The notes under the pieces were generated by a model. It was not told the DNA's origin, searched no databases, and was given only the letters and a program-made list of their open reading frames with translations. A stretch of 64,000 nucleotides of DNA from Patescibacteria group bacterium. Its GTDB lineage: Bacteria > Patescibacteriota > Minisyncoccia > Phycocordibacterales > WO2-35-19. The stretch lies in contig JBBTQO010000009.1 of NCBI GenBank assembly GCA_038065655.1, forward strand, positions 218 to 64,217, in the 5' to 3' direction. A program made the position numbers and the translations under genes. Positions 8,313 to 57,580 of this stretch are shown piece by piece; position 1 is the stretch's first letter, and every line of letters starts with the position of its first letter.

Positions 8313-8450
8313 TTATGAATGCGCTTTTTGACGAAACTTACCTTTCAAATACTCTTTTGTCCGCTTACAAGCCGCCTTGTCGTGTGAAATTCCTCCACCA
8401 CATCTTGGCGGTTTTGTTGTGTTTGGAAAATCAAAACTCTTCCTCGTCAT
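8313..8450 (-). CDS. possible small basic protein (45 aa)
   Basis: MTRKSFDFPNTTKPPRCGGGISHDKAACKRTKEYLKGKFRQKAHS. A TATTATAAAA -10-like box lies immediately upstream (leaderless-like). It sits next to the 8474..8525 repeat. No homolog recognised. Confidence 0.25.
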   Translation of the reverse strand: MTRKSFDFPNTTKPPRCGGGISHDKAACKRTKEYLKGKFRQKAHS

Positions 8451-8473
8451 AAGTTTTATAATACACACAAATT

Positions 8474-8525
8474 TTCTTGCTAGAAAATTTGCTCGTGTTC
8501 GCGCCGTCGCGCTCACAAGGCATTC
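8474..8525 (+). repeat. ~52-nt repeat, copy 1 (intergenic)
   Basis: ttcttgctagaaaatttgctcgtgttcgcgccgtcgcgctcacaaggcattc is about 80% identical to 28332..28383. Confidence 0.5.
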
Positions 8526-11025: not shown

Positions 11026-11292
11026 ATGAAAACATTAGAACAATTTAAAAAAGAAGCATTCAGAAGGTCTGGGGTAAAAAGGGCTTATATTGAAATGCAA
11101 CCAGAAATCAAGATAATTCGGGCTCTTATTGTTTCGAGAAATGAAAAGGGGATGTCTCAGAGAAAATTGGCACAAAAAATAGGTATTACTCAATCAGCCC
11201 TTGCTCGTTTTGAGGCAGGTAGGATAAATCCAACTCTTTCTTTTCTTCAAAAAATAACAACAGGTCTTGGTTTGAGGTTATTGGTAAAATAA
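11026..11292 (+). CDS. XRE-family HTH regulator, HigA-like (orphan antitoxin-like)
   Basis: 88 aa. ...MSQRKLAQKIGITQSALARFEAGRINPTLSFLQKITTGLGLRL is a close paralog of the HigA-like protein at 22866..23195. No toxin partner is adjacent. Confidence 0.65.
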   Translation: MKTLEQFKKEAFRRSGVKRAYIEMQPEIKIIRALIVSRNEKGMSQRKLAQKIGITQSALARFEAGRINPTLSFLQKITTGLGLRLLVK

Positions 11293-12483: not shown

Positions 12484-12545
12484 CCCATCACCTTCGCAAG
12501 GTGAGGGGCAACTTGCCGTGGGGCAAGTGGGGTGGGGTCGGAAGG
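12484..12545 (-). repeat. Family-C double-hairpin element (reverse orientation) in the rpsO leader
   Basis: Its reverse complement reads ccttccgaccccacccca-cttgccccacggcaag-ttgcccctcaccttgcgaaggtgatggg. Compare 56930..56990. Confidence 0.55.
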
Positions 12546-12639
12546 AAATTTGAAGATGGTCTTTTGGGGTAGGATATTCAAAGATCATCTTCGGGAAAGA
12601 GGATTTGCAAAAAAATGGGGTTTATGCTATCCTTTTGCC

Positions 12640-21660: not shown

Positions 21661-21698
21661 GCCCTCTCTTGTTGTAAGAGAGGGTTGGGTGAGTTATT
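21661..21698 (+). repeat. Family-A element
   Basis: gccctctctt-gttgt-aagagaggg-ttgggtgagttatt, 8 nt before the tpiA ATG. Confidence 0.6.
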
Positions 21699-21706
21699 AT
21701 ATAAAT

Positions 21707-22477
21707 ATGAAGCATCGCAATCTAGTAGTGGCTAATTGGAAGATGAGTCCAGAGACTTTAGAAGAGGCCAAAAAAATATTTAATGGCGCTAGGTTGGCAG
21801 CTAAAGGTTTAAAAAATACAGATGTAATTATTTGCCCACCTTTTCTATTTATTCAGCCACTTTTAAAATTGAAATATCCTAAAAATATGTTTTTGGGAGG
21901 GCAGAATATTTCGAGTGAAATCAAAGGTGCTTTTACGGGAGAAGTCAGCGCCTATATGGTAAAAAATTTAGGAGTCGGCTTTTCTATAATTGGTCATTCC
22001 GAAAGAAGGACGATGGGTGAGAGCAATGAAATAATTAGAAAAAAATTACAAATTGCTTTTGATGCCGATTTAACACCAATTTTTTGTATTGGTGAAAAAG
22101 AAAGAGACAAAGAAGGAAGCCATCTCAGTTTTATAAAAAATCAAATCAAAGAATGCTTAACTGGTTTACAGAAAAAACATTTGGTTGGCATCATTGTTGC
22201 CTACGAACCAATTTGGGCCATTGGCAAATCTTACAAAGAAGCAATGAGTGCTACTGACATTCACGAGACAGTTTTATTTATAAAAAAAATTATAAGCGAG
22301 CTTTTTGGTAAGGACATCGCTGATGGTTCTAAAATTCTTTACGGTGGCTCAGTGGAAGCAGAAAATGCTTATGAAATGGCCCATATTGGCAATATTGAAG
22401 GTTTCCTAGTGGGCCACGCCTCACTCCGCCCAGAACAATTTTCTGCCGTCTTAAAATCGGTGGATATGAAGAGGTAA
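21707..22477 (+). CDS. tpiA: triosephosphate isomerase
   Basis: MKHRNLVVANWKM...AYEPIWAIGKS...GGSV are the TIM signatures. Confidence 0.9.
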   Translation: MKHRNLVVANWKMSPETLEEAKKIFNGARLAAKGLKNTDVIICPPFLFIQPLLKLKYPKNMFLGGQNISSEIKGAFTGEVSAYMVKNLGVGFSIIGHSERRTMGESNEIIRKKLQIAFDADLTPIFCIGEKERDKEGSHLSFIKNQIKECLTGLQKKHLVGIIVAYEPIWAIGKSYKEAMSATDIHETVLFIKKIISELFGKDIADGSKILYGGSVEAENAYEMAHIGNIEGFLVGHASLRPEQFSAVLKSVDMKR

Positions 22478-22535
22478 TTTCCCTTCCCAGAAGATGACCT
22501 TTGAAGACCCTGCCTCAAAAGGTCATCTTCAAATT
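22478..22535 (+). terminator. Family-B post-stop hairpin with conserved loop (after tpiA)
   Basis: tttcccttcccaGAAGATGACCTTTgaagaccctgcctcaAAAGGTCATCTTCaaatt. Confidence 0.6.
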
Positions 22536-22583: not shown

Positions 22584-22621
22584 ATACACAGATTTCAGAC
22601 GGTCGTCGCTAATCTGTGTAT
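22584..22621 (+). promoter_or_regulatory. 38-nt palindromic operator-like site (ATACACAG-N-GACGGTCGTC-N-CTGTGTAT), copy 3
   Basis: atacacagatttcagacggtcgtcgctaatctgtgtat overlaps the higB start. Confidence 0.55.
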
Positions 22622-24640: not shown

Positions 24641-24754
24641 ATTTTAATTTTATCACATTTACGCACAAAATTACAAAAACATTATTTCTGCGTTAGGTCA
24701 TAAGGATAAGGCTCTTGAAACAATGTTTTTGTAATTTTGTGCTAACATTCTTTT

Positions 24755-27303: not shown

Positions 27304-27924
27304 ATGAATATTTTTAATGATTCAAATAGTGCTCAAAAAAAGTTCCAAGGTAAAATTGCTGGTTCGAAAGGGGCTGGATATGCTGAAATTTTTTTGAATA
27401 AGGAAGTAGAGAAGTTTCTCAGGGAAAATATATCTGATAAAAATACAAAAATAATTATTTATACTGATGGTTCGTCGCGTGGTAATCCTGGGCCGGGTGG
27501 TTTTGGAGCGATTATTTTTAGTAGAGAAAAAGTTTTGGAAATTGGTGGTAGAGAAGAGCAAACAACAAATAATAGGATGGAAATGAAAGCGGCGATTGAA
27601 GCTCTGAAAATAATTCCAGAAAATTCTTTTGTTGAGTTGCATGCAGATTCTGAGTATTTAATAAAAGGTATTACGATTTGGATTAAAAATTGGCAGAAAA
27701 ATAATTGGCGCACTAAAGATAAGAGGGAAGTTTTAAACCGCGATTTGTGGGAAGAACTTTTAGCACAAACAGAAAATAAAAATATAGAATGGAAAAAAGT
27801 AGTGGGCCACTCAGGTCACGAGTTTAATGATCGTTGTGATGAGATTGCTACAAGTTTTGCCGATGGCTTGAATGTTGATTTTTATAATGGCTCAGAATCA
27901 GGGTATTTCTTGTTTCATCAATGA
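27304..27924 (+). CDS. rnhA: ribonuclease HI
   Basis: IIYTDGSSRGNPGPGGFGAII...TTNNRMEMKAAIEAL...HADSEYLIKGIT.WI.NWQKNNW...VGHSGHEFNDRCDEIA are the canonical RNase H motifs. Confidence 0.85.
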   Translation: MNIFNDSNSAQKKFQGKIAGSKGAGYAEIFLNKEVEKFLRENISDKNTKIIIYTDGSSRGNPGPGGFGAIIFSREKVLEIGGREEQTTNNRMEMKAAIEALKIIPENSFVELHADSEYLIKGITIWIKNWQKNNWRTKDKREVLNRDLWEELLAQTENKNIEWKKVVGHSGHEFNDRCDEIATSFADGLNVDFYNGSESGYFLFHQ

Positions 27925-29528
27925 TTGCTTTTGTCGTTTCATTTGTTATAGGAATCGTTTTTGAAAAAATTTTTGGTTTGGGTTGGAGCATCGCCTTGCT
28001 CATAATTTTAGTTTCAGTAACTTTAAGGGCAATCCTTTGGGGCAATTCTTCAAGAGTTGCCCTTGGGGAAGAGAGTCAAAGACGCCCTTTGAAAGTTGTT
28101 CCCAAAAGGGCGTCTTTGACTTTCTTTGCGATTAGTTTGGCTTTTTCTCTCGGAATTTTGAGAATGAATTTTGTTAGCACTTCTCCTGATACAAATCTTT
28201 ACAAACTTATCAGCCAAAAAATTTCTTTTGAGGCCACTATTTCCGATGAGCCCGATATAAGAGATACTTCGGTGCGTTACATAGTCAGACCAGACTTTTC
28301 TTTGGAATATGTTTCTGAATGCACGGATATTTTCTTGCTAGAAAATTCCTCGTGCTCGGCTCAGTCAGCCTCGCAAGGCATTCATAAACACATTCCCTCG
28401 AAAAGTCTTGTACTTTTGGTCGCAAATAGATATCCTGAATTTCAATATGGCGACAAAATAAAAGTTTCTGGTAAATTAGATTTGCCAAAAAATTTCGTAG
28501 CAGAAAATGGTACAGAATTTGATTACATTTCATATTTAGCCAAAGATAAAATTCACTTTTTGATTTATCGTCCTCAAATTGAAAAAATAGAGGGTTATGA
28601 TGGTAGCAAAATTATTACCTCACTCTATTTACTTAAAAATAAATTCATAGAAAAAATTTCAGCGGTAGTGCCCGAACCAAACGCCTCTCTTTTGGGAGGA
28701 GTTATTTTTGGCGTCAAACAATCCTTGGGCACAGATTTGTTGGATGATTTTAGAAAAGTGGGGCTGATTCATATTGTAGTTCTTTCTGGCTATAACATTA
28801 CAATTATTGCGGTTGGCATATTTTACCTTACTTCTTTCTTAGGTAGAAGAAAGTTAGGTTTTGTTATAGGCGCAGTTTCTATTTTACTTTTTGCTATTAT
28901 GGTGGGCCTTGGCGCCACTGTAATCCGAGCTTGCATTATGTCTCTTATTTCTATTTTGGCGGTTTATCTCGGTCGACCTTCAGACGCATTACGCTTCCTT
29001 TTTATTGCTGGGTTTTTAATGCTCCTTTGGAATCCTTTACTTCTTTTTTATGACCCATCCTTTCAACTTTCTTTTATGGCCACATTGGGATTAATTTTAT
29101 TTTCGCCTTTTATTTTTTCTTTTATCACTGAGCACAAGTTTGGAAAGTTTATTTCAATCAAATTTGGTTTAAGAGAAATAGTTTCCTCCACATTAGCTGT
29201 TCAATTTTTTGTCTTACCTTTACTCATCAAGATGTCAGGTTTCGTTTCTTTAATTTCATTTTTAGTTAATCCAATTGTTTTACCACTAGTGCCGTGGGCG
29301 ATGGCCTTTGGCGCTTTGACTGGCGCACTCGGAATATTTTCTCAAATGCTTTCTTGGCCGTTTGGTGTCATTTCCTATTTTATTTCTCAAATAATAATTT
29401 ATATCACCGAACTTTCCGCAAATATTCCTCTTGCCACTTTGCAAACCGGATCAATTTCAATCTGGCTAATTTTTGTTTGGTATGTGGGTTATGGAGTTTT
29501 GTATAAAAAATTGTCAGCAGAAAAATAG
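27921..29528 (+). CDS. comEC: ComEC/Rec2 competence channel (membrane domain only)
   Basis: 535 aa polytopic. LLGGVIFGVKQSLGTDLLDDFRKVGLIHIVVLSGYNITII is the ComEC 'Competence' domain core. No MBL domain in this ORF. Confidence 0.7.
   Translation: MIAFVVSFVIGIVFEKIFGLGWSIALLIILVSVTLRAILWGNSSRVALGEESQRRPLKVVPKRASLTFFAISLAFSLGILRMNFVSTSPDTNLYKLISQKISFEATISDEPDIRDTSVRYIVRPDFSLEYVSECTDIFLLENSSCSAQSASQGIHKHIPSKSLVLLVANRYPEFQYGDKIKVSGKLDLPKNFVAENGTEFDYISYLAKDKIHFLIYRPQIEKIEGYDGSKIITSLYLLKNKFIEKISAVVPEPNASLLGGVIFGVKQSLGTDLLDDFRKVGLIHIVVLSGYNITIIAVGIFYLTSFLGRRKLGFVIGAVSILLFAIMVGLGATVIRACIMSLISILAVYLGRPSDALRFLFIAGFLMLLWNPLLLFYDPSFQLSFMATLGLILFSPFIFSFITEHKFGKFISIKFGLREIVSSTLAVQFFVLPLLIKMSGFVSLISFLVNPIVLPLVPWAMAFGALTGALGIFSQMLSWPFGVISYFISQIIIYITELSANIPLATLQTGSISIWLIFVWYVGYGVLYKKLSAEK
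28332..28383 (+). repeat. ~52-nt repeat, copy 2 (inside comEC CDS)
   Basis: ttcttgctagaaaattcctcgtgctcggctcagtcagcctcgcaaggcattc. Confidence 0.5.
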
Positions 29529-30285: not shown

Positions 30286-31203
30286 ATGAGCTTTAAATTA
30301 AAAATTAGGCTGATTATTCTAACTATCTTATTATTTCTAACTATCTTTTCATTTTATATTGCCTGGCGAGAGGAGGACAGAGGTATTTTGACAGTGGTTT
30401 TTTTAAACATTGGTCAGGGCGACGCTACCTTTATTGAAGGGCCAAATGGTAACCAAATTCTTATAGACGGCGGTCCGGGTAAGTCGGTACTTAGAGAATT
30501 GTCTAAAGTTATGCCTTTTTATGACCGAAGTATCGATGTTGTTTTGGCAACTCACGCTGACCAAGACCATGTTGGTGGATTGCCGGATGTTTTAAAAAAG
30601 TATCAAGTAAATATTTTTATGGAAACAGGAGTGGCCGGAGAATCTTCTTCTTATGAAGAACTTGAAAAAATAGTTGGAGAAAAAGAAAGTGCGAGTAGGA
30701 TTAAAAAAATATTAGTCAGAAAGGGTATGGAGATTGATTTGGGAGACGGGGCTATTTTGCAAATTCTTTTTCCCGATAGAGATCCCTCGGGCATGGAGAC
30801 CAATACCGCCTCAATTGTGGCCAGACTTGTTTATGGTGAAAATGAATTCCTACTTACTGGTGACTCGCCACAAGTTATTGAAAAATATCTGGTTTCTTTA
30901 GGTAGTCGAGAGTGTCAAGGGCAACCCTTGAAATGCTCCGGTCCCAAAGGGTTGCCCTTGACACTCGAAAGTGACGTGCTCAAAGCTGGGCATCATGGCT
31001 CAAAAACCTCAACCGGCGCAGTCTTCGTTTCAGCTGTTTCTCCCCAATATGTCGTCATTTCTGCAGGTAAAGACAATCGATACGGCCACCCCAATCAAGA
31101 AGTATTAGATATTGTTTCCAATTTTGGAGCCAAAATATTTCGCACCGACGAGTCGGGCCGCATTATATTCCAAAGCGATGGAGTAAATTTGGAAGTTAAA
31201 TAA
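30286..31203 (+). CDS. MBL-fold metallo-hydrolase, ComEC C-terminal-domain-like, carrying an in-frame palindromic insertion
   Basis: N-terminal TM. HADQDHVGGL (HxHxDH). ...VLKAGHHGSKTS. Residues ...RECQGQPLKCSGPKGLPLTLES are encoded by the 57-nt palindrome at 30910..30966. Confidence 0.7.
   Translation: MSFKLKIRLIILTILLFLTIFSFYIAWREEDRGILTVVFLNIGQGDATFIEGPNGNQILIDGGPGKSVLRELSKVMPFYDRSIDVVLATHADQDHVGGLPDVLKKYQVNIFMETGVAGESSSYEELEKIVGEKESASRIKKILVRKGMEIDLGDGAILQILFPDRDPSGMETNTASIVARLVYGENEFLLTGDSPQVIEKYLVSLGSRECQGQPLKCSGPKGLPLTLESDVLKAGHHGSKTSTGAVFVSAVSPQYVVISAGKDNRYGHPNQEVLDIVSNFGAKIFRTDESGRIIFQSDGVNLEVK
30910..30966 (+). mobile_element. in-frame palindromic mini-insertion element, copy 1
   Basis: Perfect 20-bp arms GAGTGTCAAGGGCAACCCTT / AAGGGTTGCCCTTGACACTC around the loop gaaatgctccggtccca. 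57 nt = 19 codons, inside a CDS. Confidence 0.7.
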
Positions 31204-36571: not shown

Positions 36572-36629
36572 TTTTTTCTTTCAATATTTTGTTGCAGAAG
36601 CACCACTCGGTGTTTTTTGTTTTTTAGTA

Positions 36630-36667
36630 ATACACAGATTACTGACAACCGTCAGTGATGTGTGTAT
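36630..36667 (+). promoter_or_regulatory. 38-nt palindromic operator-like site, copy 1 (overlaps a TATAAT box and abuts the paaX-like start)
   Basis: atacacagattactgacaaccgtcagtgatgtgtgtat. -10 TATAAT at 36668..36673, ATG at 36681. Confidence 0.55.
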
Positions 36668-36680
36668 TATAATAAAAGCA

Positions 36681-37250
36681 ATGATAACGAGTTTAGAGAA
36701 AAAAATTAAAAAGGCAAATATACAAAAAGTTATTTTGGAAACGGTAAAATTAGCTGGAATTATTGGTGTTGGAATAATTGCTCCGAATGTATTGAGGGCA
36801 ATGAAAAAAATGGGGTTCATTACACACCCAAGGCAAATTGAATCAATAAAAAGATCTCGAGATGTTCTTATTGAAAGAGGTTTGCTTGAAAATAAAAACG
36901 GGCAACTAAAGATAACGCAAGGAGGAAAAAGGTATTTATTCAGGTGCTTATCTTTGGGAGACAATAAGGAATTAAACAAAAATAAAAAATGGGATGGCAA
37001 ATGGCGGGTTTTAATTTTTGACATTCCCGAAAGCAGGAGATTTGACAGAACAAATATTCGCCAAGCTCTTATTTCAATCGGATTTATGAGGTTGCAGGAT
37101 AGTGTTTGGATATATCCATATAGTTGTGAAAACATAGTATCTCTTTTAAAAGCTGAAACCGAAACGGAAGGAGATGTTTTGTATATGATTGTGGAAGCAT
37201 TGGAAAATGACGAAGAAGTAAAAAAATACTTCGGACTTAGTAAAAAATAG
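36681..37250 (+). CDS. PaaX-family transcriptional regulator-like protein
   Basis: C-terminal KWDGKWRVLIFDIPESRRFDRTNIRQALISIGFMRLQDSVWIYP matches the PaaX_C signature (WDG.W.lv.fdlPe..r..Rd.lr..L...GFg.l..gvWi.P). Inserted between rpsG and fusA. Confidence 0.65.
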   Translation: MITSLEKKIKKANIQKVILETVKLAGIIGVGIIAPNVLRAMKKMGFITHPRQIESIKRSRDVLIERGLLENKNGQLKITQGGKRYLFRCLSLGDNKELNKNKKWDGKWRVLIFDIPESRRFDRTNIRQALISIGFMRLQDSVWIYPYSCENIVSLLKAETETEGDVLYMIVEALENDEEVKKYFGLSKK

Positions 37251-37260
37251 ATTTTTTGGT

Positions 37261-37298
37261 ATACACAGGTTATTGACGGTCGTCGATGATGTGTGTAT
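37261..37298 (+). promoter_or_regulatory. 38-nt palindromic operator-like site, copy 2 (immediately after the paaX-like stop)
   Basis: atacacaggttattgacggtcgtcgatgatgtgtgtat. Confidence 0.5.
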
Positions 37299-37777: not shown

Positions 37778-39931
37778 ATGAATCGTGATTATCCGTTAGA
37801 GAGAGTTAGAAATTTTGGAATTATAGCCCATATTGATGCCGGCAAGACTACTGTTTCCGAGCGTATTTTGTTTTACACCGGAAGCCAGCACAAGATTGGA
37901 GAAGTGCATGAAGGGGAGACTACCACTGACTGGATGGAACAGGAGCGGGAACGAGGAATTACTATCACCGCGGCCGCCATTACTTGTTTTTGGGCACCAA
38001 CATATTTGGGTGAAGAAAGCAGAAAAAACAAAGATAATAAATATCGTTTTAATATTATTGATACTCCAGGGCACATTGATTTTACAGTGGAAGTGAAAAG
38101 ATCAATGCGTGTTTTGGATGCGGCTGTTTGTGTGTTTGATGGCGTAGCCGGAGTTGAGCCTCAGAGCGAAACCAACTGGCGCTATGCCGAGGAAGCCGCT
38201 GTGCCTCGTCTTTGTTTTATAAATAAATTAGATCGAATTGGCGCTAACTTTGAAAAATCATATAAATCAATTTTGGTCAGACTTTCCAAAAAGGCCGTTC
38301 GTATGCAAATACCGGTTGGTGAGGAAGATAAACACGAAGGACAAATTGATTTGTTAAAAATGAAAGCTTACAAATTTGAAGGTCACTTGGGCGGTAATGT
38401 GATTGAGACAGAAGTTCCTGAGAATTTGAAGGAGGAAGCCTTAAAATACCGAGCTGAATTGGTGGAAAGAATTGTAGAGAACAATGATGAAATGATGAAT
38501 AAATATTTAGCTGGGGAGGAAATTGCTGTCGCCGATTTGAAAAAGATTTTGCGCGAAGCTGTTATTGCTAATAAAATTTTCCCAGTTTTTTGTGGTTCTG
38601 CTTTGAAAAATAAAGGAGTGCAGTTGGTTTTGGATGCCGTCGTTGATTATCTACCTAGTCCACTCGATATGCCGGCTATAAAAGGTATTGATCCGAGAAC
38701 TGGCGAAGAGGTAGAAAGACACCCTTCTGACGAAGAACCATTTTCTGCTTTGGCTTTCAAACTTCAAGCCGATCCTTTCGTGGGACAACTCACATTCTTC
38801 CGGGTTTATTCTGGGACAATTGAGTCAGGCTCTTATATATATAATGCTTCAACTGGTGACAAAGAAAGACTTGGTCGTATCGTGCGATTACAGGCCGATA
38901 AGAGAGAAGAAGTGAAAAAAGTTTTTGCCGGAGAAATTGCCGCCGCTGTCGGTTTGAAAGATACCAAAACTTCAAACACATTTTGTGATGAAAATAATCC
39001 TATTATTTTGGAGACCATCATTTTCCCAGAACCAGTTATTTCACTTCGCATTGAACCTAAGACCAAAGCTGACCAAGAGAGAATGGGTATGGCCCTGCAT
39101 CGCCTTTCAGATGAAGACCCAACCTTTAAAGTTAAAGGTGATCCAGAAACAGGAGAAACTGTTATTTCTGGAATGGGCGAATTACATTTGGATATTATTG
39201 TTGATCGTATGAAAAGAGAATTTAATGTGGAAGCTAATGTCGGTGCGCCACAAGTAGCGTACAAAGAGACTATTACCGGTACGGCCGAAGCCGAAACTAA
39301 ATACATCAAACAGACTGGTGGAAAAGGTCAATACGGTCACGTCAAACTCAATATTAAACCTTTGGAGGCAGAAGTGGAAAATAAGAAAAAACAGAAAAAC
39401 ATTCATCGCGAAGAAGGTTTTGAATTCGTTGATTCCATCAAAGGTGGTGTGATTCCTTCTGAATTTATCCCTGCGGTTGAAAAGGGTGTCAAAGAGGCGA
39501 TGGAGCGAGGTATCGTGGCTGGCTACAAAATGGTGGATATTTCTTGTGAACTTACCTTTGGTTCTTACCATGATGTGGACTCATCTGAAATCGCTTACAA
39601 GATTGCCGCATCGCAAGCATTCCAAGAGGCGGCCAAAAAAGCTAAACCAGTGATTCTTGAACCCATTATGAAATTGGAAGTGGTGGTGCCGGAACAGTTT
39701 ATGGGTGATATTACGGGCCACCTTTCATCTAAACGAGGTTTGATTGAAGGTATGGATGATAGAGCTGGACTCAAAGTGGTTAAAGCTAAAGTGCCTCTTT
39801 CAGAATTATTTGGTTATGTTACAACACTTCGCTCTATGACTGAGGGTCGTGGTAATGCTAACATTGAATTTGATCACTATGCTATCGTGCCGGCTAACAT
39901 AGCTTTGGCTATTGTGGAAGCGAGGAAATAA
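37778..39931 (+). CDS. fusA: elongation factor G
   Basis: NFGIIAHIDAGKTTVSERILFYTG, DTPGHIDF, NKLD. 717 aa. Confidence 0.95.
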   Translation: MNRDYPLERVRNFGIIAHIDAGKTTVSERILFYTGSQHKIGEVHEGETTTDWMEQERERGITITAAAITCFWAPTYLGEESRKNKDNKYRFNIIDTPGHIDFTVEVKRSMRVLDAAVCVFDGVAGVEPQSETNWRYAEEAAVPRLCFINKLDRIGANFEKSYKSILVRLSKKAVRMQIPVGEEDKHEGQIDLLKMKAYKFEGHLGGNVIETEVPENLKEEALKYRAELVERIVENNDEMMNKYLAGEEIAVADLKKILREAVIANKIFPVFCGSALKNKGVQLVLDAVVDYLPSPLDMPAIKGIDPRTGEEVERHPSDEEPFSALAFKLQADPFVGQLTFFRVYSGTIESGSYIYNASTGDKERLGRIVRLQADKREEVKKVFAGEIAAAVGLKDTKTSNTFCDENNPIILETIIFPEPVISLRIEPKTKADQERMGMALHRLSDEDPTFKVKGDPETGETVISGMGELHLDIIVDRMKREFNVEANVGAPQVAYKETITGTAEAETKYIKQTGGKGQYGHVKLNIKPLEAEVENKKKQKNIHREEGFEFVDSIKGGVIPSEFIPAVEKGVKEAMERGIVAGYKMVDISCELTFGSYHDVDSSEIAYKIAASQAFQEAAKKAKPVILEPIMKLEVVVPEQFMGDITGHLSSKRGLIEGMDDRAGLKVVKAKVPLSELFGYVTTLRSMTEGRGNANIEFDHYAIVPANIALAIVEARK

Positions 39932-39989
39932 TTCCCTTCCCAAAGGGTGACCCTTGAAGATCCTGCCCCAAAGGGTCATCCTCAAATTT
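39931..39989 (+). terminator. Family-B post-stop hairpin (after fusA), stem with compensatory changes
   Basis: attcccttcccaAAGGGTGACCCTTgaagatcctgccccaAAGGGTCATCCTCaaattt. Confidence 0.6.
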
Positions 39990-47227: not shown

Positions 47228-47264
47228 ATTCGATATTTTAACATTTTTATGCTATTATTGTCTT

Positions 47265-47354
47265 GTCACCAAATCAAAATGAAAATTCGCAAAAGTCCTC
47301 GGATCCCGGCTTCGCTTCGGCCAGACTTTTGAAATTTTATTTTGATTTGGTGAC
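47265..47354 (+). repeat. Family-D nested-IR element with perfect 16-bp outer IR
   Basis: gtcaccaaatcaaaat-gaaaattcgcaaaagtcctcggatc...ccagacttttgaaatttt-attttgatttggtgac. Lies in the divergent smpB/ftsH promoter region. Confidence 0.55.
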
Positions 47355-47363
47355 TGCAAAAAT

Positions 47364-49268
47364 ATGGCAAAACAAAAACTAAACAAAAAAAATATTGAAA
47401 AAAAGCCGGAGGGAGGAATTAAAAACTCGTTTTTTAGTAATTTTCTGATAAGCGTTCTCATTTTGTTTTTTGTAGTTTCTATATATTCTTTGATTTCTAA
47501 TAACAAAAGCAAACCCGAAATTAGTATTTCCGAACTGGCCAAAGCGGTGCAAGTCGGTGATGTTAAAGAAATTTCAGTCAAAAGTGATTCTATAGATGCC
47601 ACATTTAAAGATGGGGTTATTAAAACTTCCAAAAAAGAAGACACTGCTGGTCTTACTGAAACTCTTTCTGCCTACGGAGTGACCACCGAAGAACTTGGCA
47701 AAATAAAAGTAAGCGTTGACCAGGGTGGCGGCTTTTTCTATTGGTTCTTAAATCTTTCACCTATATTATTCCCCATACTTTTTATTGCGGTTTTCATTTG
47801 GATGATGACCCGCCAGATAAAGGGAGCTGGTATGCAAGCCTTTTCTTTTGGTCAATCAAGGGCCAGGCTGACGGCGCCGGATGACCAGAAACAAAGAGTA
47901 ACTTTTAAAGATGTGGCTGGTTGTAAAGAAGCCAAAGAAGAACTTTCCGAAATTGTAGATTTTCTTAAAAATCCTAAAAAGTTTCTAGAAATTGGCGCCA
48001 GAATTCCCAAGGGTATTCTATTGATGGGCGCTCCAGGAACAGGCAAAACTCTTTTAGCTAGAGCAGTTGCTGGCGAAGCGGGAGTGGCTTTCTTTTCAAT
48101 CTCTGGTTCTGAATTCGTAGAAATGTTTGTCGGGGTAGGTGCTTCTCGAGTGCGCGACCTTTTCCAAATAGCCAAAAAAGCGGCACCAGCCATTATATTT
48201 ATGGATGAGATTGATGCAGTTGGTAGAGTGAGAGGTGGAGGCTTGGGTGGTGGCAATGATGAGAGGGAGCAAACTCTAAACCAAATTTTAGTTGAGATGG
48301 ATGGTTTTGAACCTGCTGAGAAGGTAGTAGTGATGGCGGCCACCAACAGGCCTGATGTATTAGACCCAGCCTTATTGCGCCCAGGCAGATTTGACCGCCG
48401 AGTGACTATTGATTTACCTGACCGAGCTGATAGAGAAGAAATTTTAAAAATACATTCCAAAGAAAAACCTTTTGCTGAAGATGTAAATTTGATGGTTATC
48501 GCCGAACGAACTCCCGGTTTTTCTGGCGCCGATTTATATTCTCTTATGAATGAAGGAGCTATTTTGGCAGCTAGGGAAAACAGGACCAAAGTTTCTCAAT
48601 TTGATTTGGTGCGTTCTATTGAAAAGGTAATGCTCGGCCCAGAAAGACGCAGTCATATTTTATCCAAAAAAGAAAAAGAAATTACCGCATATCACGAAGC
48701 TGGTCACGCCCTAGTCGCTAGCATTTTACCTTACGCTGATCCGGTTCATAAAATTTCAATTATTTCTCGTGGTCGAGCGGCCGGTTATACTCTCAAATTA
48801 CCCATTGAAGACAGAAGACTTCAATCTAAAAAAGAATTTCTAGATGATATTGCTATGTCTCTGGGTGGTTATGTCACGGAGAAAATGGTTTTTGGTGATT
48901 TGACCACTGGACCATCAAACGATTTACAGGTTTCCACCGCTTTGGCTCGCGATATGGTCACTAAATATGGCATGTCAGAAAATATGGGACCGATTGCTCT
49001 TGAGGGGACAGAGGGCAAAGCTCTCTTTGGCCGAGGAGTGAATGAAAAAGAATATTCAGAAGAAGTGAGTGCTCTTATAGATAAAGAAGTTTCCAAAATA
49101 ATGAAAGATGCTCACGATAAAGCAGAGAAAATAATTACCGAGCATCGTCCCCTCCTTGATGTTATTGCTCGGCGGTTGATTGAAGTAGAAAACATTGAAC
49201 GTGAAGAATTTGAAAACATTCTTATTACAAACGGTGTTCAACCTAAAAGAAAAGAGGAATTGGTTTAA
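47364..49268 (+). CDS. ftsH: ATP-dependent zinc metalloprotease FtsH
   Basis: Two TM segments. [28 protein letters not shown]. Zinc site HEAGHAL. Confidence 0.95.
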
Positions 49269-49377: not shown

Positions 49378-50058
49378 ATGAAACGACTACAAAAGGAAAA
49401 AGAAGAAGCAATAAGAATGAGATTAGGGGGGATGAGTTATTCTCAAATAAAATCAAAAATTAAAGTAAGCAAGAGCTCTCTTAGTGCTTGGCTTGCTAAA
49501 TATCCGTTGTCTGATGAGAGAATTAGAGAATTAAGGGATGTTAATCCTAGAAGAATAGAAAATTACAGAAAAACCATGGCACTCAAATGGCAAGCCAAAC
49601 TAAATGTTGCTCTTGAGAAAGCCAAAAAAGACATTAAACATCTTTCAAAAAGAGAATTATTTATTTTAGGTTTTGCACTATATTGGGCAGAAGGTGGGAA
49701 GACTCGAAAGAGCACATTACATTTTGGAAACACTGACCCCGACATGTTGAAAGTTTTTGTTAAATGGCTTATATTATTGGGAGTTCCTAAGGAGAGACTA
49801 AGGGTCAAACTTCATATGTATAAAGATATGGACAAGGAGAAAACTATTTCTTTTTGGGAAAAAACACTTGGAATTAAATCCGATCAATTTGGAAAACCGT
49901 ATGTCAAAAATTCTTATCTGACGGGGTTGACTTACAAACATGGTTTTGGACACGGTACATGTAATATTGTTTATCATAATACTGAATTGGCAAGCTATGT
50001 TTTGATGGGAATAAGGCATATTATAAATGATTTGATTGATTCAAAAATGCGCGCTTAG
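49378..50058 (+). CDS. HTH + LAGLIDADG-like domain protein
   Basis: 226 aa. N-terminal HTH (GGMSYSQIKSKIKVSKSSLSAWL). LGFALYWAEGGK resembles a LAGLIDADG catalytic motif followed by NTDPDMLKVFVKWLILLGV. Paralog of the partial gene at 1..611. Its last 10 nt overlap the tRNA-Ile(TAT) gene. Confidence 0.5.
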   Translation: MKRLQKEKEEAIRMRLGGMSYSQIKSKIKVSKSSLSAWLAKYPLSDERIRELRDVNPRRIENYRKTMALKWQAKLNVALEKAKKDIKHLSKRELFILGFALYWAEGGKTRKSTLHFGNTDPDMLKVFVKWLILLGVPKERLRVKLHMYKDMDKEKTISFWEKTLGIKSDQFGKPYVKNSYLTGLTYKHGFGHGTCNIVYHNTELASYVLMGIRHIINDLIDSKMRA

Positions 50059-50121
50059 CTCAGTTGGTAGAGCATTCCGCTTATACCGGAACGGTCGGGG
50101 GTTCGAGACCCTCAGCGCGCA
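50049..50121 (+). tRNA. tRNA with anticodon TAT (AUA-decoding tRNA-Ile-like)
   Basis: Acceptor GCGCGCT/AGCGCGC, D-arm GCTC-AGTTGGTA-GAGC, anticodon stem TTCCG/CGGAA with loop CTTATAC, T-loop TTCGAGA, discriminator A. Followed by a terminator at 50135..50160. Confidence 0.65.
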
Positions 50122-50134
50122 CAGCGTTAAGAAA

Positions 50135-50275: not shown

Positions 50276-52471
50276 TCACTCCATATGCACTGTGGTTTTT
50301 TCTGCCAGGTGCTTCGCGAGGAGGGGGTAATTTTTTAATTCAAAATCTTTTTCAATTAAAGTATGAGCTTCCAAACGAGCAGCTTCAACCATTTTGATAT
50401 TGCGGAGCGCTTCCATGGCAAGGTCAGAGACACCCCACTGTTTGGCACCAGCCAAATCACCACTGCCTCTTTGTTGTAAGTCGGCTTCAGCTAACTCAAA
50501 ACCATTATGGGCGGTGGTAAAAGATTTTAGGCGAGAGATAGTTTTTTGGGATTTACTATCGGCGAAAACAAAACAATATGGTTTGTAGGAACTGCGAAGA
50601 ACTCTACCCCGAAGCTGATGCAGTTGAGCTAAGCCAAACCTCTCGGCGTTTTCTATTATGATAACCGTGGCATTGGGTATATTTACTCCCACCTCCACTA
50701 CAGAGGTGGCCACCAAAATATCAATTTTTTTATCCTTGAAATCTCTCATCACATTTTCTTTTTCCATCGGTTTTAATTTACCGGTGATAGCCCCCACTTT
50801 AAATTCAGGGAAAACCTTTTTTTGCAGTCTTTCAGTTTCAGATTTTACTGATTTGGCATTGATAGTGTTTTCTTTATCTGGATCCGGGTCATTTACTCGC
50901 GGGCAAACAACAAAAACTTGCCGACCTGTTTTTAATTCTTCCCTTACTCTTTCATAAATTTCTTCTCTTTGGTGAGGCAAAACAATTTTTGTTTCCGGAA
51001 TTTGTCTGCCAGCCGGTAATTCGTCTAGCAGAGATAAATCCAAATCGCCAAAAATTGTTAAGGCCAGTGTGCGGGGGATGGGGGTAGCGGTCATACTAAG
51101 TAAATGTGGAGCAATATCATGCTTACGACGTAGTTGCATTCTTTGTTTAACACCAAAACGGTGTTGCTCGTCTATGATTATTAGAGCTAAATTTTTAAAT
51201 TGGACGGTTTTTTGAATTAAGGCATGAGTGCCAATCAAAATAGGTATTTCACCATTAGCCACCCATTTTAGAAGTTGTGGTTTAGATATTTTGGTCCAAG
51301 CCAAGGTCGGACCTTTGGGACCGGAGCAGTTTAAGGTCCGACCTTGGCTTGTCTTGGAAGGAAATTTTTTTGCGCCACTGCCGGTAATGAGGCCGACCGA
51401 TAATTTATATTTGGCAAAATATTCTATAAAAGATTCAAAATGTTGCTCGGCCAAAATTTCGGTGGGTGCCATATAGGCAACTTGCAAATTGCCGTATTCT
51501 CTATTTAGAGGAGCGGTAGTTACAGTGGCGAAACTGGCAGTGGCGGCCACCGCTGTTTTACCAGAACCAACATCTCCTTCAAGCAGGCGTGACATTGGGT
51601 GGCCAGTTTTAAAATCGCTCAGTATTACTTCAATTGATTTATTTTGAGCGCTAGTTAAGGGGAAGGGGAATGTATCTATAAAATCTTTTATTTCTTTGTC
51701 TTTTTTTGAAATTAAAAAAGATTTTTCTTTTTGGGCGATATATTTTTCTTTCTGGCGGTCAAGCTGAATAAAAAATATTTCCTCAAAAGCAAATCTTTTT
51801 CTGGCTATTTCGGCGTCTTCTTTTTTGCGTGGAGCATGTATCCAAATGAGAGAGGTTTTGAGTGATGGTAAATTATATTTTTTTAAAATTTCTAGTGGAA
51901 TGGGGTCTATCAAATTGTCTAAAAACTCGGAAGAAAATATTTTTTGGATGGCATGATAAATCCAATTGGTAGAAATACTGCGGCTTTCCGAATAAACGGG
52001 GGAGAGGTTATGATTGTCTTCGCCGGTAAACAAAGAGCCGCTGGTTCCCTCGGGTATTTCTGACACTTTTTCTATTTTTGGATTAGAAAAATAGAGCTCT
52101 CCCTTTCTTTCTGAAATTTTTCCTTCAATCCTCACCAGTGATCCTTCAAAATACATTTTGGCTATGTAAGGCTGAGAAAACCAAATAATTTTAACTTTGC
52201 CAGTAGTGTCTTCTATCTCTGCCGTTGAAATGGCTACTCTGGATTTAAAAGTTTTGGCTGTTTTTAATTTAGAAATTCTACCAAAGACAACGGCATTTTC
52301 CCCGACGTTTAAAAATTCTATCGCTTTTACATCTCCCGCTTCTCCGTATCTGGTGGGGAAATGTCTCAATAAATCTTCGGTTGTTTTGAGACGCATTTTA
52401 GCCAACGCTTTTTTTTGAAAAGGAGAAAGTCTAAAAATTTGTTCAAGCGGAGTATCTGTTTGAATTTTCAT
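50276..52471 (-). CDS. recG: ATP-dependent DNA helicase RecG (with in-frame palindromic insertion)
   Basis: Wedge, helicase motifs (GDVGSGKT, DEQHRFG) and C-terminal domain. ...SQGRTLNCSGPKGPTLAW... is encoded by the palindrome at 51295..51349. Confidence 0.9.
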   Translation of the reverse strand: MKIQTDTPLEQIFRLSPFQKKALAKMRLKTTEDLLRHFPTRYGEAGDVKAIEFLNVGENAVVFGRISKLKTAKTFKSRVAISTAEIEDTTGKVKIIWFSQPYIAKMYFEGSLVRIEGKISERKGELYFSNPKIEKVSEIPEGTSGSLFTGEDNHNLSPVYSESRSISTNWIYHAIQKIFSSEFLDNLIDPIPLEILKKYNLPSLKTSLIWIHAPRKKEDAEIARKRFAFEEIFFIQLDRQKEKYIAQKEKSFLISKKDKEIKDFIDTFPFPLTSAQNKSIEVILSDFKTGHPMSRLLEGDVGSGKTAVAATASFATVTTAPLNREYGNLQVAYMAPTEILAEQHFESFIEYFAKYKLSVGLITGSGAKKFPSKTSQGRTLNCSGPKGPTLAWTKISKPQLLKWVANGEIPILIGTHALIQKTVQFKNLALIIIDEQHRFGVKQRMQLRRKHDIAPHLLSMTATPIPRTLALTIFGDLDLSLLDELPAGRQIPETKIVLPHQREEIYERVREELKTGRQVFVVCPRVNDPDPDKENTINAKSVKSETERLQKKVFPEFKVGAITGKLKPMEKENVMRDFKDKKIDILVATSVVEVGVNIPNATVIIIENAERFGLAQLHQLRGRVLRSSYKPYCFVFADSKSQKTISRLKSFTTAHNGFELAEADLQQRGSGDLAGAKQWGVSDLAMEALRNIKMVEAARLEAHTLIEKDFELKNYPLLAKHLAEKTTVHME
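51295..51349 (-). mobile_element. in-frame palindromic mini-insertion element, copy 2
   Basis: Perfect 19-bp arms CAAGCCAAGGTCGGACCTT / AAGGTCCGACCTTGGCTTG around the loop tgggaccggagcagttt. This loop is the reverse complement of copy 1's loop, i.e. it is the same on the coding strand. Confidence 0.7.
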
Positions 52472-55592: not shown

Positions 55593-56864
55593 ATGAATAA
55601 TTTTATTCACAAATTCAAATTGGTATTAGGGGACAAGATATTGAGAGGTAGAATCTTGTTTACGCTTTTTATTTTGGTCTTATTTCGCTTGATGGCCACT
55701 ATTCCGATTCCGGGTATTGATACTTTAAGATTAGAGCAATTTATTTCTGGTAACGATTTCTTTGGTCTACTCAACATATTTTCTGGAGGTGGTCTTTCCA
55801 ACCTTTCAATTATTATGCTTGGGGTTTCTCCTTATATCACCGCTTCTATTATTATGCAGCTTATGACAGTGATGTTCCCAAAATTGAAAGCTATGTATCA
55901 AGAAGAGGGGGACGCCGGCAGAAAAAAGTTTTCTCAATATTCAAGATTACTGACAGTGCCGCTCGCTTTTATGCAGGGGTATGCTTTTATTATTTTACTT
56001 CAAAATCAAGGTATATTAGCAAAGTTAGCCACCTTTGATTTAGTAACCAATCTTATTGTGATTAGTGTCGGCTCTCTGTTGCTTATGTGGTTGGGTGAGC
56101 TTATAAGTGAATTTGGTATCGGCAACGGTGTTTCTCTTATAATCTTTGCCGGTATCGTTTCAGTTTTACCGGGGGCAATGGGCAAACTTTTGTTTGCTTT
56201 TGACCCATCTCAACTTCCTGCTTATGTTGGTTTTATCGCGGCAGCACTGGTGGTTATTTGGGGCGTGGTGGTTATTACTGAAGCCGAAAGACCAATCCCG
56301 GTAACTTATGCTAAACAAGTGAGAGGCAACAAAGTGTATGGGGGTGTTTCTACTTATTTACCGCTTAGAGTCAACCAGGCCGGAGTAATCCCAATTATCT
56401 TCGCCCTTTCTATATTACTTTTCCCTCAAATGATTGTTCGTTTCTTGGTTAATGTTAATAATGTGATTGTTCAGAAAATTTCAGCTTTCTTCCTTTCAAT
56501 CCTATCAAACCAGTTGTTTTACGGTATTGCTTATTTCTTACTAGTATTTATTTTTACTTACTTTTACACTGCTATTACTTTTGATCCAGATTCAATTTCA
56601 AAAAATTTGCAAAGAAGCGGGGCTTTCATTCCAGGAGTTCGTCCAGGCGTTTCCACATCTGCTTATATCGCCAAAACTCTTTTCCGTTTGACTATGGTTG
56701 GTGCGCTTTTCCTTGGTGTTATAGCTGTTTTGCCTCTAGTAGTAAAATATTTTACAGGTATTAGCGCGGTGGCTATCGGTGGCACCAGCCTTCTCATCGT
56801 AGTCTCGGTGGTCATTGACCTCATCAAAAAAGTGGACGCTCAAATTTCTGCGAGGGAATATTAA
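55593..56864 (+). CDS. secY: preprotein translocase subunit SecY
   Basis: 423 aa, 10-TM SecY pattern. Confidence 0.9.
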   Translation: MNNFIHKFKLVLGDKILRGRILFTLFILVLFRLMATIPIPGIDTLRLEQFISGNDFFGLLNIFSGGGLSNLSIIMLGVSPYITASIIMQLMTVMFPKLKAMYQEEGDAGRKKFSQYSRLLTVPLAFMQGYAFIILLQNQGILAKLATFDLVTNLIVISVGSLLLMWLGELISEFGIGNGVSLIIFAGIVSVLPGAMGKLLFAFDPSQLPAYVGFIAAALVVIWGVVVITEAERPIPVTYAKQVRGNKVYGGVSTYLPLRVNQAGVIPIIFALSILLFPQMIVRFLVNVNNVIVQKISAFFLSILSNQLFYGIAYFLLVFIFTYFYTAITFDPDSISKNLQRSGAFIPGVRPGVSTSAYIAKTLFRLTMVGALFLGVIAVLPLVVKYFTGISAVAIGGTSLLIVVSVVIDLIKKVDAQISAREY

Positions 56865-56876
56865 TCTCATTCTTCA

Positions 56877-56929
56877 TTTCCCAGAAGATGACCTTTGAAT
56901 ATCCTGCCCCAAAAGGTCATCTTCAAATT
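56877..56929 (+). terminator. Family-B post-stop hairpin (after secY)
   Basis: tttcccaGAAGATGACCTTTgaatatcctgccccaAAAGGTCATCTTCaaatt. Confidence 0.6.
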
Positions 56930-56990
56930 TTCCGACCCCACCCCATCCGACTTGCGCCGGATTGCCCCTCACCTTGCGAAGGTGAGGGAA
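56930..56990 (+). repeat. Family-C double-hairpin element
   Basis: ttccgaccccacccca-tccgacttgcgccggat-tgcccctcaccttgcgaaggtgagggaag. Confidence 0.55.
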
Positions 56991-57021
56991 GAAATAAAAA
57001 TATGTTGGAAAATAACCCTTT

Positions 57022-57369
57022 TTAAACGAGTTGGATTTGTTTGCCGAGAGCTGTGGCTATTTTGTAGATAGTGCTATAAGAAAACCCGTGTCTCGTGTTT
57101 TCAACGCGAGCAATCATAGACTGGGTCATACTTGCTCTTTTGGCTAGGGTTTTTTGAGACATTTTTTTCTTGAGACGAGCTTCTCTTATTTGCTTTTTTA
57201 TTCTCATTTCTGCTAATTCTGTATTGTAAGCATCCCTGAAAGCTTTTGATTTCATACTTTTTTCAAAAACTTCATCAAATGTATAAAATTTGTGTCCTTT
57301 TATTATTAATTTGTAATATTTTTCTGCATAATCTATTTCTTGTAATGGTGTTTTGTTACTTTTCTTCAA
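57022..57369 (-). CDS. XRE-family HTH protein
   Basis: C-terminal MSQKTLAKRASMTQSMIARVENTRHGFSYSTIYKIATALG HTH. Inserted between secY and adk on the opposite strand. Confidence 0.6.
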   Translation of the reverse strand: MKKSNKTPLQEIDYAEKYYKLIIKGHKFYTFDEVFEKSMKSKAFRDAYNTELAEMRIKKQIREARLKKKMSQKTLAKRASMTQSMIARVENTRHGFSYSTIYKIATALGKQIQLV

Positions 57370-57580
57370 GAATACGTTTGCAAAATAAATTGTATTTTTA
57401 TAAATGAAAAATATAAAAAGGAGTTTATAAAATCATTAACTTTTGTTACAAAAGTTGTGCCCAGCGGGTAACTCATAAATCCAAGTATAGCAAAATTGCT
57501 ATATTGATGTCAAGCGGTTTACTTATTCTTACTTTTCCTTTATTCTATATTCATTATTCTTACTTCATAATTCATATCTC

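Follow-up and report, generated by a model that had tools for sequence, protein, structure and literature searches.

A lineage-restricted family of palindromic repeats with in-frame copies in recG and other genes of ultra-small groundwater bacteria

The recG gene in the window (the whole 64,000-nucleotide stretch of DNA that was analysed) contains a perfect hairpin that, by sequence comparison, is a member of a lineage-restricted family of palindromic repeats in ultra-small groundwater bacteria. We consider it probable that this hairpin is a copy of a selfish, mobile and translated repeat, one that behaves like the Rickettsia palindromic elements (RPEs) while lying outside the RPE family. The recG copy (51297..51351, minus strand; 55 nt) is of the A-type, scores 65.8 bits with the family covariance model, and has a perfect 19-bp stem and a 17-nt loop. 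Its arms, CAAGCCAAGGTCGGACCTT (51297-51315) and AAGGTCCGACCTTGGCTTG (51333-51351), enclose the loop (51316-51332), and on the gene strand the element reads CAAGCCAAGGTCGGACCTT-AAACTGCTCCGGTCCCA-AAGGTCCGACCTTGGCTTG. The first-pass annotation had placed a perfect 55-nt hairpin at 51295-51349, which holds apart from an offset of +2 nt, and had assigned it to the helicase-domain coding region of recG, an assignment that Pfam bears out. The host gene (50276..52471, minus strand; 731 aa) encodes wedge, DEAD/ResIII, Helicase_C and RecG_dom3_C domains, and the insert lies in the DEAD/ResIII helicase domain, in frame and with zero stop codons, where it covers codons T374-W392 (TSQGRTLNCSGPKGPTLAW). The encoded peptide segment is SQGRTLNCSGPKGPTLA, and the peptide stretch across the insert is SQGRTLNCSGPK. 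It is flanked by motif Ib (LITGS) and GEIPILIGTHA, and falls between helicase motifs Ib and II. The same annotation called recG an essential gene; as is known from E. coli, this is not generally so.

The recG hairpin far exceeds chance expectation. In an 86-nt context its mRNA strand is predicted to fold at -38.7 kcal/mol (z = -7.2; 0 of 200 shuffles as stable), the calculation of RNA folding energy that had been asked for earlier, and the DNA at -23.5 kcal/mol (z = -7.75), making it very stable in either form. The whole window holds seven hairpins with perfect stems of at least 13 bp, the longest reaching 20 bp, whereas 30 composition-preserving shuffles of the window gave longest stems of 9-14 bp and zero or one hairpin with a perfect stem of at least 13 bp. 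An intrinsic transcription terminator was rejected for the recG copy because the hairpin lies mid-ORF and its 3' flank is GACCAAAATATC, not a U-tract at the end of a gene. A permissive Rfam scan of 51200-51450 gave one miRNA match at chance level, and no Rfam family fits the element; at gathering thresholds, the Rfam search of the window recovered tRNAs and tmRNA only.

Members of the family are about 43-71 nt long, palindromic, dispersed and relatively GC-rich. They share an architecture in which a variable outer stem is followed by CAARG, five variable but always compensated base pairs, CYTT, the loop and the complementary arm. The loop is conserved (14-17 nt), with the A-type consensus GAACTGCCCCGGTCCCA. 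Stem pairing is maintained. Seven orthologous recG copies show seven compensated double changes and five single changes, the latter mostly at stem ends. Across the family, 14 of 19 pairs have double changes and 83% of cells are paired; 0 of 500 shuffles reach the observed paired percentage or covariation score, and sliding the stem partners lowers pairing to 31-52%. The repeated unit is the whole hairpin, outer stem included: the AAGCCAAAGTCGGACTTT stem is identical along its full length, outer stem included, in recG (locus L003) and a cysteine desulfurase gene (L080), and AAAACCAAAGTCGGACTTT is found in L081 and in ComEC (L090) with one T/C difference, in the left arm only. Since different genes carry identical outer stems, we rejected the idea that these were copied from the target flank. 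A TIGR/CRISPR-like array was also dropped, because the copies are dispersed rather than tandem and the variable parts are 5 bp long and mutually complementary.

With the covariance model (R1) we identified eight family copies in the window, four of them intragenic (recG, an MBL hydrolase gene and two in ComEC) and four intergenic, sitting just after or before genes. These are more copies than the first-pass annotation had listed. The MBL-fold gene (30286-31203; ComEC C-terminal-like) carries an A-type copy at 30909..30966 (plus strand, in frame; 65.4 bits), with the hairpin at 30910-30966; it has a perfect 20-bp stem and encodes ..RECQGQPLKCSGPKGLPLTLE... Its loop core, TGCTCCGGTCCCAAAGG, is identical to that of the recG hairpin, which bears out the earlier description of the latter as a second copy of an element, whereas the stems differ in sequence yet are complementary in each. 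The ComEC channel gene (27921-29528) carries a copy at 28070..28122 (plus strand, in frame; stem 17 bp, loop 14 nt; 58.2 bits) that encodes ..ESQRRPLKVVPKRASLTF.., and a neighbouring copy in the same ORF but in opposite orientation at 28020..28072 (minus strand; imperfect stem; 43.7 bits) that encodes ..LRAILWGNSSRVALG...

The intergenic copies are B-type. One, with a 15-nt loop (22482..22535, plus strand; 65.1 bits), begins 5 nt past the stop codon of ORF 21689-22477. Another (39935..39988, plus strand; 65.1 bits) is directly 3' of the EF-G gene (37778-39931) and has an orthologous copy in the closest relative (L090:18074-18127). The copy after secY (55593-56864) at 56876..56929 (plus strand; 71.5 bits) has an orthologue in L001 (3016-3077) and is missing in L003 and L068. 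Upstream of the ribosomal protein S15 gene, the copy at 12547..12600 (minus strand; 60.3 bits) has a decayed stem and belongs to a composite GC-rich repeat found again at 56876-56990. B-type intergenic copies just past stop codons are followed by CAAATT(TT), and it is possible that they act as intrinsic terminators.

Contigs from related Patescibacteria (Zambryskibacteria-type) contain about 35 non-redundant copies recognized by model R1, with stems of 13-27 bp. Host genes among these relatives include TatD, Dus, FolD, TsaD, two tRNA synthetases and cysteine desulfurase. At least 11 unrelated genes contain the element, in either orientation and in three reading frames, and further copies lie between genes; 19 of 24 A-type copies are intragenic. 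Searching 185,579 species genomes (596 Gb) with a 25-nt degenerate pattern of the loop returned 16 matches. Of these, 14 carry a perfect stem of 13-27 bp, and every one of the 14 comes from a Patescibacteria MAG (labelled as Zambryskibacteria, Paceibacterota, Patescibacteria group or uncultured Candidatus Saccharibacteria); the two matches outside Patescibacteria are stemless. Viral contigs contained zero exact matches to the A-type or B-type loop pattern, and thus give no sign of a phage vector. A concatenated 51-aa profile of the encoded peptides, compared with a collection of 5.8 billion proteins to count host families, yielded only 11 candidates, none of which scored.

Orthologous sites are found in many states. 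The element is present in 18 of 120 RecG orthologues, where it replaces the usual four residues (NKEK-like), and about 85% are without it. The carriers are patchily placed on the tree: in bootstrapped neighbour-joining trees of recG, clades mixing filled and empty sites were recovered in 40 of 40 and monophyly of the filled alleles in 0 of 40. The MBL site is empty in 44 of 121 orthologues, and the other 77 have forward, flipped, tandem, B-type or collapsed forms. At the ComEC site there are two copies in the window, one flipped copy in the closest relative and none in two others. The loop is inverted in the recG of L068 and the MBL gene of L082, a B-type element is nested within the recG hairpin loop of L007, and L089 retains an arm-only remnant. 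Some other recG orthologues have unrelated inserts at the same codon positions, among which an 'LRLRSGQA' insert of other lineages was set aside as it forms no strong hairpin and is apparently a different element. Presence and absence, the inverted loop, the nested element and the unrelated inserts at the same codons agree with the earlier suggestion of a rearrangement hotspot. The same three sites (recG, MBL and ComEC) are occupied repeatedly; a single old insertion with later allelic exchange, and not several insertions, could be the cause. What separates filled from empty sites is a replacement of 4-16 nt (in recG, 4 codons become 17) and not a clean insertion, so they do not look like products of classical cut-and-paste transposition. 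No consistent direct repeat indicative of a target-site duplication flanks the 27 copies examined, and Pfam scans of 20 window ORFs identified no transposase or RAYT, only a XerC/D-like integrase.

The position of the insert in RecG points to a site where additions are tolerated. HMMER alignment of RecG to Thermotoga RecG (1GM5) is interrupted exactly around residues 370-393, and the counterpart of the insert is absent from the Thermotoga protein. In an AlphaFold2 model, pLDDT falls below 50 at residues 375-388, between strands 367-370 and 393-395. In the model the insert (~17 residues) thus makes up the tip, predicted at low confidence, of a beta-hairpin that protrudes in helicase domain 1, and these extra residues are probably disordered. 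On this model the site would be a structurally tolerant surface position, an assessment made for RecG alone.

All intragenic copies keep the frame of the host gene and are stop-free. Moreover, in the 'SQ..' phase an A at one position would produce a TAA stop; five of five flipped copies have G there, compared with two of nine forward copies. Preservation of the frame, the lack of stop codons and the avoidance of a potential TAA favour read-through, and intragenic copies are very probably translated with the host protein. Translational bypass of the byp or T4 gene 60 type was rejected on the same observations.

We propose that the whole hairpin is a non-autonomous selfish mobile unit that lands in, or is copied into, both intergenic and coding DNA, and that intragenic copies survive only where the frame is kept, no stop arises and the protein offers a tolerant surface loop. 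The recG copy would be transcribed and translated as ~17 extra residues (net +13), most likely with a neutral or slightly harmful effect on the enzyme. Arm-to-arm recombination or template switching may keep the arms perfectly complementary, and would account for loop inversion, loop replacement (nesting) and arm-only collapse. The element would then be a local rearrangement hot spot and not a recG regulator. We infer both mobility, as the source of the copies, and arm conversion. Against this proposal, the conservation of the loop across species could reflect a function at the DNA or RNA level.

A more far-reaching and distinctly tentative proposal, which we regard as possible but on balance doubtful, is that the hairpins are substrates of an active and new hairpin-DNA mobility or recombination process in the Candidate Phyla Radiation that homes to particular loops or to pre-existing hairpins. 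If true, it would account for the reuse of the recG, MBL and ComEC sites by different subfamilies, and for the nesting, flips and replacement-type junctions. It would operate with no conventional transposase, and the surface loops of core proteins would be continually remodelled.

The first-pass annotation had suggested that a cruciform or RNA hairpin could modulate recG expression. Such cis-regulation, in which the mRNA hairpin or cruciform tunes recG translation, mRNA stability or transcription, is consistent with the very stable RNA and DNA folds and with the maintenance of the stem by compensated changes among recG orthologues. A role specific to recG is nevertheless unlikely because so many unrelated genes, and intergenic DNA as well, carry the same element in both orientations and three frames, and most RecG orthologues lack it. 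The loop is also inverted or replaced at the recG site with the ORF retained, and no known RNA family matches.

Alternatively, the repeat could be a selected DNA signal, such as a ComEC uptake sequence or the site of a genome-maintenance protein, that is useful genome-wide and hence tolerated in genes. Its 17-nt loop is near-identical across species and genes, and the use of three reading frames excludes selection at the protein level as the cause. Coding DNA is not strongly avoided, with 12 of 17 independent A-type loci in ORFs at an ORF coverage of 83.5% in the window. The uptake sequences of Haemophilus and Neisseria likewise lie in coding regions and form inverted pairs. We nonetheless judge this reading improbable given the low density of the repeat (8 copies per 64 kb), the restriction of the family, among 67 fetched loci, to RecG relatives with 79% identity or more, and the tendency of copies to decay, collapse and differ in presence between close relatives. 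To our knowledge, no protein is known to bind the repeat.

Selection on the peptide itself, with SQGRTLNCSGPKGPTLA giving RecG and other proteins a useful surface loop, seems very unlikely. The same DNA yields three quite different peptides in the frames used (F1, R1 and R2), AlphaFold2 confidence is low in the segment, and the insert is patchy among orthologues and found in unrelated host enzymes. Most independent intragenic loci do share an arm phase that leads to similar peptides, and frames F2 and R3 are open yet unused; the use of just three of the five stop-free frames hints at some constraint.

We find it harder still to accept that the palindromes are immobile and arise repeatedly in place by template-switch (quasi-palindrome) mutation at fragile sites, their similarity being convergent. 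This would fit the repeated involvement of the same sites, the replacement junctions without target-site duplication and the resemblance of the recG left outer stem to the empty-site sequence (CAAGCCAAGG vs CAAACAAAGA). However, convergence is disfavoured because the 17-nt loop and stems of up to 21 bp are shared by unrelated genes and species, and 14 of the 16 pattern matches in 596 Gb come from one phylum, all of them stemmed.

An assembly artefact in the form of a chimeric fold-back, named by the first-pass annotation as the case that would refute the palindrome, is already refuted and has next to no probability, as the recG gene and hairpin are identical (0 mismatches) across five independently assembled contigs from different Hainich groundwater samples at 4-53x coverage, sequence-variant orthologous copies are present in JGI, ENA, NCBI and Logan assemblies, and the frame is intact in every case, although one low-coverage contig (L044) does stop just short of the hairpin. 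The five contigs were fetched from nine on record for this RecG protein, and being nucleotide-identical consensus assemblies they show no visible within-population polymorphism at recG.

Our preferred reading, a selfish and mobile translated repeat, has its closest parallel in the Rickettsia palindromic elements (Ogata et al. 2000, 2002; reviewed in PMC10969869 and PMC2229807). In each case palindromic repeats are dispersed through the genome of a reduced-genome bacterium, lying in intergenic DNA and, with unusual frequency, in frame within conserved housekeeping genes at tolerant surface positions, where they are translated with the host protein (presumably so here). Neither has a known transposase, and a clear target-site duplication is not seen in RPEs nor, among the 27 copies examined, here. 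As a dispersed stem-loop family with in-frame copies and, in RecG, a tolerant position, the element belongs to the RPE-like functional class. It is not one of the RPE family proper (RPE-1 to RPE-10), whose members are 105-146 bp long (PMC2229807), in contrast to the simple hairpins of 43-71 nt described here, all of which have Patescibacteria hosts, a phylum unrelated to the Alphaproteobacteria; the sequences are probably unrelated too. The present family also differs in that one and the same DNA sequence serves three reading frames, the stem has a hypervariable compensated 5-bp core, and orthologous sites show loop inversion, nesting and arm-only collapse. The enzyme encoded by Rickettsia gmk is biochemically equivalent with and without its RPE (reviewed in PMC2229807).

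Bacterial MITEs (the 107-bp form of Correia/NEMIS, ERIC and YPAL; PMC2229807) are likewise small non-autonomous stem-loop repeats that are sometimes fused in frame to ORFs. They are, however, AT-rich repeats of 100-200 bp that end in TA and have target-site duplications, and some have a matching IS transposase. None of these features is apparent here, among the 27 copies examined for duplications and the 64 kb of the window for a transposase. The REP/BIME repeats (RAYT; IS200/IS605-like Y1 transposases) are short (20-40 nt), GC-rich imperfect palindromes in which structure is conserved over sequence and the single-strand hairpin is thought to be the recognised substrate. Unlike the present family, REPs are extragenic, with a conserved GTAG end and a co-occurring RAYT gene, and we rejected this assignment given the intragenic location of most A-type copies, the lack of a GTAG end and the lack of a Y1 transposase in the window. 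The GC clusters and 'byp' elements of yeast mitochondria, reportedly described by Weiller and colleagues in 1989 and Lang and colleagues in 2014, are short, GC-rich, palindromic mobile elements of an AT-rich compact genome and are sometimes found in protein genes. Byps are skipped by the ribosome, which leaves their frame unconstrained, whereas the intragenic copies here are in frame and stop-free.

In the literature searched, we found no report of an element of this kind in this phylum. With this family, the rare phenomenon of selfish DNA in coding genes, hitherto known mainly from Rickettsia, would also include the Candidate Phyla Radiation, in which genomes are tiny and thought to be poor in mobile elements. 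Much smaller and simpler than RPEs, and with natural filled, empty, flipped, nested and collapsed alleles, it could be a tractable system for asking how palindromes are kept perfect, how an element moves without an obvious transposase and how protein loops tolerate insertions. In practical terms, the elements make marker proteins vary in length and could be used to mark strains; they may also interrupt assemblies of low coverage, as seen in one instance here (L044).

The recG gene (50276-52471, minus strand; 731 aa) carries a perfect 55-nt inverted repeat, CAAGCCAAGGTCGGACCTT and AAGGTCCGACCTTGGCTTG on either side of a 17-nt loop, that covers codons T374-W392. The first-pass annotation had described a perfect hairpin of this length at 51295-51349; it is present, and its real coordinates are 2 nt further right, at 51297-51351. 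Folding energies are -38.7 kcal/mol for the mRNA strand (z = -7.2), the check that the annotation had proposed, and -23.5 kcal/mol for the DNA (z = -7.75). Perfect-stem hairpins of at least 13 bp occur seven times in the window, versus 0-1 times in block shuffles. The chimeric fold-back that had been considered as an artefactual origin is ruled out, because five Hainich groundwater metagenomes, each assembled independently, contain this same gene and its hairpin with 0 mismatches. Another Hainich contig (L044, from H43; 1711 nt, 100% identical to the window) stops at RecG residue 363, ~10 codons ahead of the hairpin, and is probably a low-coverage assembly broken beside the palindrome.

The annotation had also taken the recG hairpin to be a second copy of an element, and a repeat search pairs it with a hairpin in an MBL-fold (ComEC C-terminal-like) gene (30910-30966) that has the same loop core and different, yet complementary, stems. 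Scanning for hairpins revealed a further copy, in ComEC (28074-28121), together with a set of related intergenic ones. With a covariance model built from 12 copies, we identified eight in the window: those in recG and the MBL gene, two in ComEC that are adjacent and in opposite orientation, and four of B type, three of them just past the stop codons of ORF 21689-22477, EF-G and SecY, the fourth upstream of the S15 gene. Across 67 fetched loci from recG relatives (748 kb), copies are present only where RecG identity is at least 79%. One genome from each of 185,579 species was searched with a degenerate 25-nt pattern for the loop, giving 16 matches. Perfect 13-27-bp stems flank 14 of these, all 14 in Patescibacteria MAGs; the other two, in Bacteroidota, lack a stem and represent the expected chance background. 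Viral contigs contained no match to the pattern.

The pooled catalogue holds ~35 non-redundant copies in two forms. Most A-type copies, whose 17-nt loop is GAACTGCCCCGGTCCCA, lie within genes (19/24 copies and 12/17 independent loci; 83.5% of the window is ORF), and most B-type copies, with a 15-nt loop and conserved ends (TTCCCA...CAAATT), lie between genes. Among the host genes are those for TatD, Dus, FolD, TsaD, ArgRS, a class I (Val/Ile-type) tRNA synthetase, and cysteine desulfurase at two different positions, in addition to RecG, ComEC and the MBL protein. Different genes carry identical stems, outer parts included, and therefore the whole hairpin is the repeated unit.

All intragenic copies keep the host frame, and three reading modes occur: F1 (SQG..L[NK]C.GPKG..L), R1 (SQ.RTFGTGAVQ..TL; loop flipped, arm phase as in F1) and R2 (SKG.FWDRGSSK.PF). 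Because one DNA sequence gives three peptides, loop conservation does not stem from protein-level selection. When read in R1, TT[A/G]AAC contains a TAA stop if its variable base is A; that base is G in 5/5 R1 copies versus 2/9 F1 copies. Such a bias is consistent with read-through translation and speaks against the copies being bypassed by the ribosome or excised from the RNA.

We compared 120 RecG orthologues (65-92% identity; those named are labelled Zambryskibacteria, Parcubacteria, Paceibacterota or Patescibacteria). Most read KFPSK-T-NKEK-WTKISKPQ at the hairpin position; in 18 of the 120, a SQGRTLNCSGPKGPTLA-like sequence replaces four variable residues. At the DNA level the empty site, CCAAGACAA-ACAAAGAAAAG-TGGACC, becomes CCAAGACAA-GCCAAGG...CCTTGGCT-TGGACC when filled; this replacement lengthens the site by a net 39 nt and leaves no target-site duplication. 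When the protein is aligned with HMMER to its Thermotoga counterpart (1GM5), the alignment breaks exactly around residues 370-393. In an AlphaFold2 model (mean pLDDT 77), residues 375-388 (pLDDT <50; true numbering, from which that of the model is offset by one) are predicted to form the tip of a beta-hairpin between strands 367-370 and 393-395, preceding the helix that leads to GEIPILIGTHA. Other lineages have unrelated inserts at exactly the 374-392 site (LRLRSGQAT, SLSTSSRQAT, VRSPSTSSGQT, INPPAGGKNT); the DNA of the LRLRSGQA insert (CTTCGACTGCGCTCAGGGCAGGC; 11108-11188 of relative locus L087) is GC-rich and does not form a strong hairpin.

Orthologous sites vary. In the recG tree, clades mixing filled and empty alleles were recovered in 40/40 bootstrap replicates and monophyly of filled alleles in 0/40. 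Stem changes among recG copies of relatives are mostly compensated (two in L003, three in L069, where mid-stem TCGGA has become ACAGT, and one each in L070 and L068); five are uncompensated, mostly at stem ends. The L068 loop is inverted (TTTGGGACTGGGGCAGTTCAA), giving SQSRTFGTGAVQCPTLA, and the recG hairpin of L007 has a B-type element in place of its loop, so that the elements are nested. The MBL site, between YLVSLG and GLxSDVLKAGHHGS, is empty in 44/121 orthologues; the rest have an element there in forward, flipped, B-type, tandem or short ('ESQGQ-TLA') form. In L089 this short form reads AAGCCAAGGTCAGACCTTGGCTT and matches the remnant expected from deletion between the GACCTT repeats of both arms. 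At ComEC, the window has two copies and the closest relative a single flipped one, and two others are empty.

The evidence is best explained by a palindromic repeat that is selfish, non-autonomous and spreading within one Patescibacteria clade. Within genes, selection would filter for in-frame, stop-free copies in tolerant loops. Arm-arm recombination or template switching could keep stems perfect despite divergence, flip loops, and cause them to be replaced or to collapse; we infer that this is the most economical joint account of these features. Pfam scans of 20 ORFs in the window found no transposase, and no consistent target-site duplication flanks the 27 copies inspected. That the repeat acts as a DNA signal across the genome, for example in uptake, is a possible though less likely reading, and the annotation's proposal that the hairpin modulates recG expression, a function specific to this gene, is unlikely. 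The closest known analogue is the Rickettsia palindromic elements (RPEs), which are 105-146 bp long, sit in frame within numerous housekeeping genes and are translated there, with consequences for the host protein that range from neutral to slightly detrimental (PMC10969869, PMC2229807). The Patescibacteria hairpins match RPEs in behaviour and are set apart from them by size and host phylum. They show neither of the MITE hallmarks, TA ends and a consistent target-site duplication, and they differ from REPs, which are extragenic, have a GTAG end and accompany a RAYT gene, of which the window has none. Searches of the full-text literature found no description of palindromic or MITE-like elements of such type in CPR, Patescibacteria or Parcubacteria.

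The window contains other repeats. A separate palindromic family (ATACACAGATT...AATCTGTGTAT; 11-bp stem, 16-nt loop) is present three times, in intergenic DNA or close to it (22584-22621, 36611-36667, 37242-37298). A composite GC-rich repeat of ~115 nt, comprising a B-type hairpin, TTCCGACCCCACCCC and two more hairpins (e.g. GCCCCTCACCTTGCGAAGGTGAGGG), occurs twice in opposite orientation (12485-12606, minus; 56876-56990, plus). The 716-nt secY-adk spacer (56865-57580) holds repeats and an HTH_3 ORF (57022-57369, minus strand), and looks like a lineage-specific insertion because adk follows secY by only ~15-47 nt in relatives L003 and L068. The ComEC ORF (27921-29528) has an extra 33-aa in-frame insert, SLEYVSECTDIFLLENSSCSAQSASQGIHKHIP (~28299-28400), that is specific to the window, three orthologues lacking it. 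At the DNA level this insert, possibly a coding repeat of a second kind, is similar to intergenic 8436-8489, where an AT-rich hairpin sits. Long intergenic inverted repeats lie between smpB and ftsH (47244-47375; 45-nt arms, 16 bp perfect) and between a HIT gene and recJ (24663-24742; 26-nt arms, 96% complementary). A 226-aa ORF (49378-50058) with no Pfam match overlaps tRNA-Ile (anticodon TAT, 50049-50122) by 10 nt, and a similar, unannotated ORF adjoins recG in L070. Two G-rich tandem repeats with a 12-nt period (GGAGTAGGTGTG-like; 4117-4178 and 4639-4700) lie ~500 nt apart within a 976-aa ORF (2556-5486, minus strand).
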